Assembly: GCF_018350175.1 (NCBI RefSeq)
Contig: NC_058369.1
Coordinates: forward strand, 8,928,001-8,992,000
Origin: Felis catus
Lineage: Eukaryota
DNA length: 64,000 bases
Direction: 5' to 3'
Part shown: piece after piece, positions 50,721 through 52,358 of the stretch
Layout of the letters: each line of letters begins with the position of its first letter
How positions within the stretch are numbered: position 1 is the first letter of the stretch
Position numbers and translations under genes: made by a program
Notes under the pieces: model-generated
The model's database searches: none
What the model was told of the DNA's origin: nothing
The model's input: only the letters and a program-made list of their open reading frames with translations

Positions 50721-51203
50721 GTGTAGATGGAGGGGGAGAGGCAGGCCCGCACCTGAGCCAGGGTACACTCTATACACGGTGGGGAGCAGAGGCCGGGAAC
50801 CCCGCCTTCCCCTTAGCCAAGGTGACATGTGACACCAGCGCAGCCACTGGGCCCCCTGGGGCAGGGACCCCCCTCAGCTGAGGCAGCTGCTGCCGCTGAC
50901 ATTTCACTCCACGAGTGTCCAGGCTTCAAAGTCTCTGCAGGGGTGGGGGAGGAGAGGAGGGGGCTGAGAGGCCGGGCTGGCAAGGGAGGGAGCCAGAAGT
51001 GGGCTGCTGGAGGATTGAGCCGCCGGGAATCCGCCGGAGTCCTCAGCTGAAGTATGTGGTCCTGACGGGGCTCGGGGAACCGCCACCCCCTTCCCACAGT
51101 CCCCAGAGGACGCAAGAGGTGGTTGGGAGACTCTCAGGTAGCCCCTAGGGCTCAAGGTCTGGAATCGAGCCCACTGCCTACGACCCTGCTTGCTTTCGTG
51201 CAG

Positions 51204-51504
51204 ATGTCCAGCAAGGTGGCCATTGGCAGCGACATCAGGCAGGCCCGCCGGGCCGTGGAGCAGCTGCGGGTGGAGGCGGGCATCGACCGCATGAAGGTGA
51301 GGACCAGGGCGGCATGGGCGTGTCTGGGAGAGGGGGGCGGGCGGACAGCCCGGGGCCAGCTGACAGGCTGGCCCGCAGGTGTCCAAGGCGGCCGGCGACC
51401 TGCTGCAGTTCTGCGCGGAGCAGGCCAAGAGCGACCCCTTCCTTGTGGGCATCCCGGCTGCCACCAACCCCTTCAAGGAGAAGAAGCCCTGTGCCATCTT
51501 ATAA
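51204..51504 (+). CDS. GNG14: G-protein gamma subunit 14, 72 aa; join(51204..51296,51379..51504)
   Basis: [72 protein letters not shown]. Typical Ggamma intron position (K|VS), DP and NPF motifs, CAAX box; AATAAA at 51534. Confidence 0.93.
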
Positions 51505-52358
51505 CCCACGGCCCCGACCGCCCAGGAGGCCTCAATAAAAAGGAAGTGAATGATCCTCGGGACGTGGCTTGGCCAGGCTTCACGGGGACAGAGGGGGACC
51601 ACAGACTCGCACCCCCCGCACACCCGGCCCGGCCTCCCTCCCCCACCCACCCCAGGGTCACGGCCACAACAGCACACACACCTGGACTCCCGGATGGAAG
51701 GGCGTGCACCGCCCCCACCCTGCACCTCTGGGGCAGCAGTAGCAGATTCCCCTTCCCACTGCACAAACACGCCTAGGGTCGGGGTCCCACTCTACATGCC
51801 GACACACGTCACACGCGCCCACAGGTGCCGTCGTACAGATGTGCGCACGCCCTCAAGGGCCTCCTCCCTCACAGACACCCACATCCGCCAGCACACAGAT
51901 GTGCGCAGACAGGGTCACCTCCCTAGTGACACCCGGACACACGTGATCACAGAAATGCACTCGAGCGGGCACAGGTGCCCGCAGACGTAAGTAGTGGCTG
52001 CCAAGGCTTTCACGACCGTCTCGCAGACCCCCCCCCCCCCGCCCCGCCACGAGCAAGCACAGGCAGAGCCCTCGGGTGACACCAGTACATCAGGTTTATT
52101 TCTCCTTTGCTCTCCAGGGAGAGCAGGTGTCCAAACCATAACAAAAACTGGGCCCAAGGGAGGGGAGCAAGCAGTCCCCTGGGTGGGCCTGAATGGCAGC
52201 CTCACCTTCCCTGGTGTGGGGCGCAGCCCGGGGACACTGCCTAACCGTGGCCCGGACTCCTTGGGCCCCAGGCCGTTGGGACAGGGCAGAGGCGGCACCG
52301 GTGTGGGGGAAGGTCCCCCGAGAACAGAAGCCCTGGCCCAGCCTGCGGGCCGGCAGAC

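Follow-up and report, generated by a model that had tools for sequence, protein, structure and literature searches.

Gamma-7 and gamma-12 are characterised heterotrimeric G-protein gamma subunits and are intact in humans. The accessible text of a 2022 review (PMC9678972) treats twelve gamma subunits, grouping these two as having medium membrane affinity and placing gamma-8 in the habenula; 'gamma14' is absent from that text. It also states the rule, invoked by the first-pass annotation of the locus described here, that a CaaX box with Leu at X directs geranylgeranylation. The gene to which this locus corresponds, with the same two-exon coding layout and CaaL ending, is mammalian GNG14 (in RefSeq 'putative ... 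subunit gamma-14'; also LOC105372280 homolog; mouse Gm5741, NM_001195531). According to the available parts of PMC12462614, whose preprint is 10.1101/2024.12.05.626965, most mammals have a clearly coding GNG14 and great apes have a pseudogene, since tyrosine stands there in place of the CaaX cysteine; ORF-disabling changes are reported for about 20% of monkey transcripts. Figure 4C/D of the same paper superimposes the cat and human models (4C) and includes the Cys-to-Tyr change. The contrast between cat and human GNG14 is thus real but already known, with the cat as the published example, and since the gene, its name, its conservation and this contrast are all annotated and published, the present analysis adds no new gene.

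No report of G-beta binding or prenylation of gamma-14 in any species was found in open-access PMC or bioRxiv, nor any vertebrate G-gamma phylogeny that names GNG14. Likewise, no paper in open-access PMC or bioRxiv was found to carry both names, Gm5741 and Gng14, or to tie the habenula marker to the loss in apes, so that this link may be missing from print. The available text of PMC9542162 yielded no mention of Gm5741. A Drosophila descending-neuron paper (PMC11186778) reportedly contains a text match for 'GNG14'. Two further papers (PMC13295397, PMC12219609) include Gng14 only as an entry among differentially expressed genes, and the 'Ggamma14' of PMC12027419 was set aside as a naming clash, being by that paper's own text the product of GNGT2 and not of GNG14.

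The gamma-14 locus of the cat

The window, a stretch of 64,000 nucleotides of the Felis catus genome (NC_058369.1, positions 8,928,001 to 8,992,000), holds a complete G-gamma gene on its plus strand. Its ATG lies at 51204 and opens coding exon 1 (51204..51296; 93 nt, 31 codons), which encodes residues 1-31, the N-terminal coiled-coil helix. A phase-0 GT-AG intron of 82 nt (51297..51378) separates it from coding exon 2 (51379..51504; 41 codons and TAA), which encodes residues 32-72, with CAIL at 51490-51501 and the TAA stop at 51502-51504. The spliced product of 72 aa aligns without gaps to 72-aa RefSeq models and carries DP at residues 50-51, NPF at residues 61-63 and the C-terminal CAIL. A putative AATAAA polyadenylation signal (51534..51539, plus strand) follows 29 nt past the stop, and a polypyrimidine tract with an AG acceptor (51190..51203, plus strand) directly abuts the ATG. 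The first-pass annotation had described just this anatomy, from the two coding exons and motifs to the polyadenylation signal and the acceptor abutting the ATG, and all of it was found at the locus.

Exon 2 alone matches PF00631 (E 6e-11; 42.6 bits against a curated cut-off of 27.1), so the gene is not a chance reading frame; exon 1 alone matched no family in the Pfam search. The product is a stand-alone G-gamma of 72 aa from ATG to stop, and not a GGL domain inside an RGS protein. P0046, a felid protein one residue off the window, matches solved G-gamma-2 chains (1gg2, 10ja) at E 8e-20 over residues 10-72, with DP, NPF and CAIL aligned. At the positions that we take to contact G-beta, the two are identical at I11, A14, V18, L21, E24, A25, R29, V32, S33, L39, C43, D50, P51, N61, P62 and F63, and P0046 has F42 for Tyr and F52 for Leu. 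In contrast, overall identity to gamma-2 is only about 41 of 72, and the FF before the cysteine is missing in GNG14. No solved gamma-14 chain was present among the best 60 of 77 structure matches. Many mammals, including the jaguarundi (P0175), also have in-frame, stop-free models of 88-105 aa that retain the intron; in the window the intron measures 82 nt, and its retention would therefore shift the frame.

By its alignments and its place in the tree, the locus is the felid orthologue of GNG14, within the gamma-7/12 group. A search with exon 2 gave 42 of 42 candidates, of which those with a gene name were nearly all called gamma-14, and further models, from felids, other carnivores, bats, rodents, ungulates, afrotherians, xenarthrans, marsupials and monotremes, came from cluster look-ups. 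The window protein is identical to Prionailurus P0046 (RefSeq) at 71 of 72 residues, the single difference being Arg for Gly at residue 12, and differs from other felid models at one to four residues. It shares 65 of 72 residues with mouse, 58 with opossum, 57 with chimpanzee and 54 with human, and felid and marsupial or monotreme GNG14 agree at 58-60 of 72. Such a pattern, in which mouse and opossum are closer than human, fits constraint in most mammals together with decay in apes.

Maximum-likelihood analysis of 74 rows over 71 columns puts the window inside a 17-row mammalian GNG14 clade (support 100/100), which joins gamma-12 (92/83) within the gamma-7/12 group (91/88) on a long stem branch (0.33). 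The tree was built from a hand-picked subset of 149 domains; its alignment is short, its outgroup is not clean, several paralogue labels are our own reading of unnamed rows, and gamma-1, -9, -11 and -13 are absent from the rows as far as labels could be given. Gamma-7 and gamma-12 are thus the closest paralogue group; they too end in CaaL, and the basic stretch of the window protein between NPF and the cysteine ends in KKPC as in gamma-7. A ray 'gamma-7-like' protein (P0321 cluster) appears as sister to mammalian GNG14 with weak support (92/61). This ray protein and the catshark protein, named Gng14 in the available text of PMC11589584, have a 72-aa core and a CaaL ending and are identical to the window protein at 43 of 72 residues.

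Could the locus be a misassigned paralogue, a retrocopy or an annotation artefact instead of GNG14? Older database names for these proteins, gamma-7-like or gamma-12, would allow such a reading, but the locus contains an intron, the window sits in the GNG14 clade at 100/100, and identity to gamma-7, gamma-12-type and gamma-2-type proteins is only 40-44 of 72. Near-identity to the felid GNG14 models and the tree placement refute this reading, to which we give practically no credence.

The surroundings of the gene point the same way. By domain, the neighbours are a glycosyl hydrolase 38, a deoxyhypusine synthase, and F-box and WD40 exons, of which only the F-box and GH38-C2 matches reach the cut-offs. 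On the minus strand, a deoxyhypusine-synthase start lies upstream (E 0.007, under the cut-off), and F-box (E 2e-7) and WD40 exons lie downstream. These neighbours fit what we take to be the reference gene order, MAN2B1-DHPS-GNG14-FBXW9. GNG14 and the FBXW9-like gene stand tail to tail, with their AATAAA signals at 51534 (plus strand) and 52095-52100 (minus strand) about 560 nt apart, and a short hexamer tandem repeat (ccacgt / ccacat, 52360-52402) lies within the last FBXW9-like exon region. Elsewhere in the window there are a C2H2 zinc-finger array exon of 567 aa (2225-3928, plus strand) and runs of N at about 59500-59800 and 60700-60900, 481 in all, between the F-box gene and an importin-like gene, presumably TNPO2.

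Probable alternative first exons

The N-terminal extensions of 48 database models, which are gene models and not reads, were compared by tblastn with positions 47900-51203 of the window; apart from those described below, many did not align or were plain read-through of the acceptor region. The models of other mammals splice upstream exons exactly onto the ATG, and for this reason the acceptor before it is probably real and is probably served by several alternative first exons, as the aligned models suggest. All candidates described below lie on the plus strand.

The proximal candidate, a non-coding exon or promoter element (50826..51051) with a donor GT at 51052, is matched by the extensions of P0054, P0089, P0102, P0114, P0118 and P0141. 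Within it, positions 50826-50960 resemble sequence upstream in rodent and marsupial models and are plausibly a proximal promoter or exon. The first-pass annotation had named candidate donors near 51051 and 50821; the former is used by one database model, tamandua P0054, at the GT at 51052, and none of the 48 mapped extensions ends at the latter.

Further upstream, the 3' part of a distal exon (48488..48547; donor GT at 48548) is matched by 13 of the 48 extension models, among them those of horse, bats, pig, camelids, rhino and hippo, several with Logan contigs. It lies about 570 nt upstream of the start codon of the DHPS-like gene on the opposite strand (47977), and this proximity suggests that the distal exon and the DHPS-like gene may share a divergent (bidirectional) promoter. 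The horse, bat and pig models have an ATG within this exon, where the window, as we read the alignment, has AAG. A second distal candidate (48698..48820; donor GT at 48821) is supported by the models P0137 (sea lion) and P0128. Upstream exons of another kind appear in RefSeq isoforms of felids. Specifically, the extension of the jaguar isoform P0131 is 96% identical over 25 aa to 49634..49708, and that of the cheetah isoform P0133 is 100% identical over 33 aa to 49788..49886, each followed by GT. Both exons are SINE-like, by our own provisional label, and two related copies of the element are seen in the window. They are in frame, and each has its own ATG in the window and would add 25 or 33 N-terminal residues. 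A search of positions 47000-52500 for an RE1/NRSE-like silencer, with the consensus as we presume it to be, gave a sole match that has mismatches and lies inside a DHPS-like coding exon.

Probable expression in habenular and cholinergic neurons

Mouse Gm5741, which we assumed at the outset to be Gng14, was tested by probe and primer sequence. The Gm5741 microarray probe (PMC9710100 supplement) codes for the C-terminal end of GNG14, CAIL and stop included, and in the same supplement the gene is 416 nt long against an mRNA of 328 nt; the qPCR forward primer (PMC9431697 supplement) spans the exon junction and translates to GINRIKV, as found in mouse P0073. Going by these sequences, which code for residues specific to GNG14, Gm5741 is the mouse GNG14 orthologue. 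As far as the accessible texts go, Gm5741 is enriched in the medial habenula together with Gng8 (10.1101/2022.06.20.496914, 10.1101/2023.08.08.552402), is used to mark cholinergic neurons (PMC7883486), groups with Pou4f1 or Tac2 in spatial datasets (PMC12806090, PMC13276179) and changes alongside Chat and Slc18a3 in qRT-PCR validation (PMC9431697). In the catshark, Gng14 is described in the available text of PMC11589584 as 5.6-fold right-enriched, with the right lateral habenula labelled in situ, and a zebrafish orthologue is said there to mark a ventral habenular cluster. The habenular subdomain differs between the species, being medial in mouse and lateral in catshark.

As such, the first-pass description of the gene as essentially uncharacterised holds for its biochemistry but not for its expression, given that Gm5741 is a commonly used habenula and cholinergic marker. 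By analogy with mouse and shark, the expression of felid GNG14 is most likely confined to a narrow group of neurons, habenular and cholinergic. Public sequencing runs do not bear on this point: 20 of 24 hold 0.74-1.00 of the words sampled from a stretch that is about one-fifth intron, but 13 of these are only guessed to be RNA, six are of unknown kind and one is a gut metatranscriptome. With the stretch part intron, shares as high as these could come from DNA, and the runs are therefore not evidence of expression.

Retention, decay and predicted role

Across mammals, 111 of about 181 GNG14-type proteins were scored, roughly one per species, with intron-retaining duplicates and exon-only fragments left out and a few group labels resting on shortened names. 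The terminal cysteine (position -4) is kept in 106 of these 111 selected models; the five without it are human, chimpanzee, slow loris, sperm whale and a colobus model. YAIL is the ending of human P0180 (69 aa) and of chimpanzee P0177 and P0182, all three of which have NSF in place of NPF; the apes further carry R15L, R16W, R22Q and R29Q, and the human protein lacks VSK, three residues at the start of exon 2. Thus the human YAIL ending given in the first-pass annotation is confirmed, and the human protein does not retain an intact CaaX box. The proposed contrast between a gene kept in felids and one degenerated in humans holds on the human side; retention is not specific to felids. Judged from the models scored, mammals from monotremes to rodents generally have an intact GNG14, and it is in apes that the gene was lost. 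Among the best 120 of 221, 120 of 168 and 150 of 894 matches, no GNG14 could be clearly recognised from a bird, reptile, amphibian or teleost.

Beyond apes, several models show lesions of their own, each taken from single database models in which errors are possible (P0319, P0172, P0040, P0041, P0171). The slow loris model ends in FAIL and has a small deletion, the sperm whale model has NPS and a tail that continues past CAIL, the colobus model has a frameshifted tail, and two baleen whale models lack Cys43; toothed whales have several changes at core sites in common. Changes were counted at a core of 51 positions, for whose definition 77 rows outside felids, primates and cetaceans were used. 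The resulting means are protein-level proxies from database models, not dN/dS, and are inflated by shared ancestry: 5.3 in cetaceans (n=8; one with a mis-modelled N-terminus), about 6.5 in monkeys (n=12; inflated by probable modelling gaps) and 11 in apes (n=2). Taken together, these models give a hint that the gene is decaying independently in slow loris and whales. Lemur and monkey models of 68 aa without VSKA were rejected as lesions, because Aotus and Cebus retain the four residues in their NCBI models.

The cat protein carries changes as well. Codon 12 of the window is AGG (Arg; 51237-51239), and Gly stands at residue 12 in 65 of the 66 homologues of 72 aa that align without gaps, all felid models included, the lone Arg among them being that of a pangolin; Arg12 also occurs in pangolin, bat and goat models. 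The residue aligns with Ala10 of gamma-2, and Arg12 in the window may be a real allele or an assembly error. All felids have Val23 in place of the usual Met.

The available data are compatible with a model in which felid GNG14 is an intact, conserved heterotrimeric G-protein gamma subunit of the gamma-7/12 group, an ordinary geranylgeranylated G-gamma used in a narrow set of neurons, and we hold this to be very probably correct, even though Arg12, Val23 and the differing habenular subdomains of mouse and shark count against it. Its functionality, as claimed at first pass, is suggested by conservation and by rodent and shark expression. Two other readings concern the state and the role of the protein. 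Selection might be relaxed in felids or in the window lineage, as a first step towards the decay that primates, and perhaps whales, show: felids (n=9) average 1.44 core changes and other carnivores (n=10) 0.10, two such changes are present in the window (G12R and M23V), and several felid models have private changes (R22W, A47D, D38H, K64R). That comparison is biased, however, because the core was defined on non-felid groups, and a single shared change accounts for 1 of the felid mean of 1.44. All nine felid models retain full length, DP, NPF and CAIL, the core positions give scores of 4-11 for whales and primates, and residue 12, where pangolin, bat and goat models also have Arg, is presumably an outer helix position by the heptad register that we assume. 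Relaxed selection therefore seems improbable. Alternatively, GNG14 might be made and prenylated and yet be redundant, contributing no signalling of its own beside the gamma-8 and gamma-7/12 of the same neurons, and so be easily lost, a reading that is compatible with its identity as GNG14. The co-enrichment of Gng8 in the medial habenula, the repeated lesions suggested by apes, slow loris, sperm whale and colobus, and the disabled monkey ORFs of PMC12462614, as far as its available text goes, speak for redundancy. Against it stand the agreement of felid with marsupial or monotreme proteins and a likely shark orthologue with habenular expression (PMC11589584, in its accessible text), even if the ray sister branch has only 92/61; retention over so long a time makes a fully redundant gene unlikely. 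On balance, redundancy is a possibility that we regard as somewhat doubtful.

Under the preferred reading of an ordinary, intact gamma subunit, a non-coding first exon, probably one of several alternatives, would be spliced onto the ATG. From established G-gamma biology, the 72-aa product is predicted to coil around G-beta, and Cys69 to be geranylgeranylated, followed by removal of aaX and carboxymethylation. The G-beta-gamma dimer would thereby be anchored to the membrane, probably with medium affinity as for gamma-7 and gamma-12, and would relay GPCR signals; mouse and shark point to its use in habenular and cholinergic neurons alongside gamma-8.

A bolder version of this model, which we consider rather unlikely, would make GNG14 an ancient habenula-dedicated G-gamma, shared from shark to mouse and cat and providing habenular and cholinergic neurons with a G-beta-gamma dimer of their own, that great apes have shut off, with decay under way separately in monkeys, slow loris and whales. 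If true, mouse habenula pharmacology would act partly through a subunit that is absent in humans. In rodents and cats, GNG14 represents a further intact gamma subunit beyond the twelve reviewed, and it marks the medial habenula in mouse. Should it have a specific habenular role, this would constitute a concrete difference between mouse and human in G-protein signalling.
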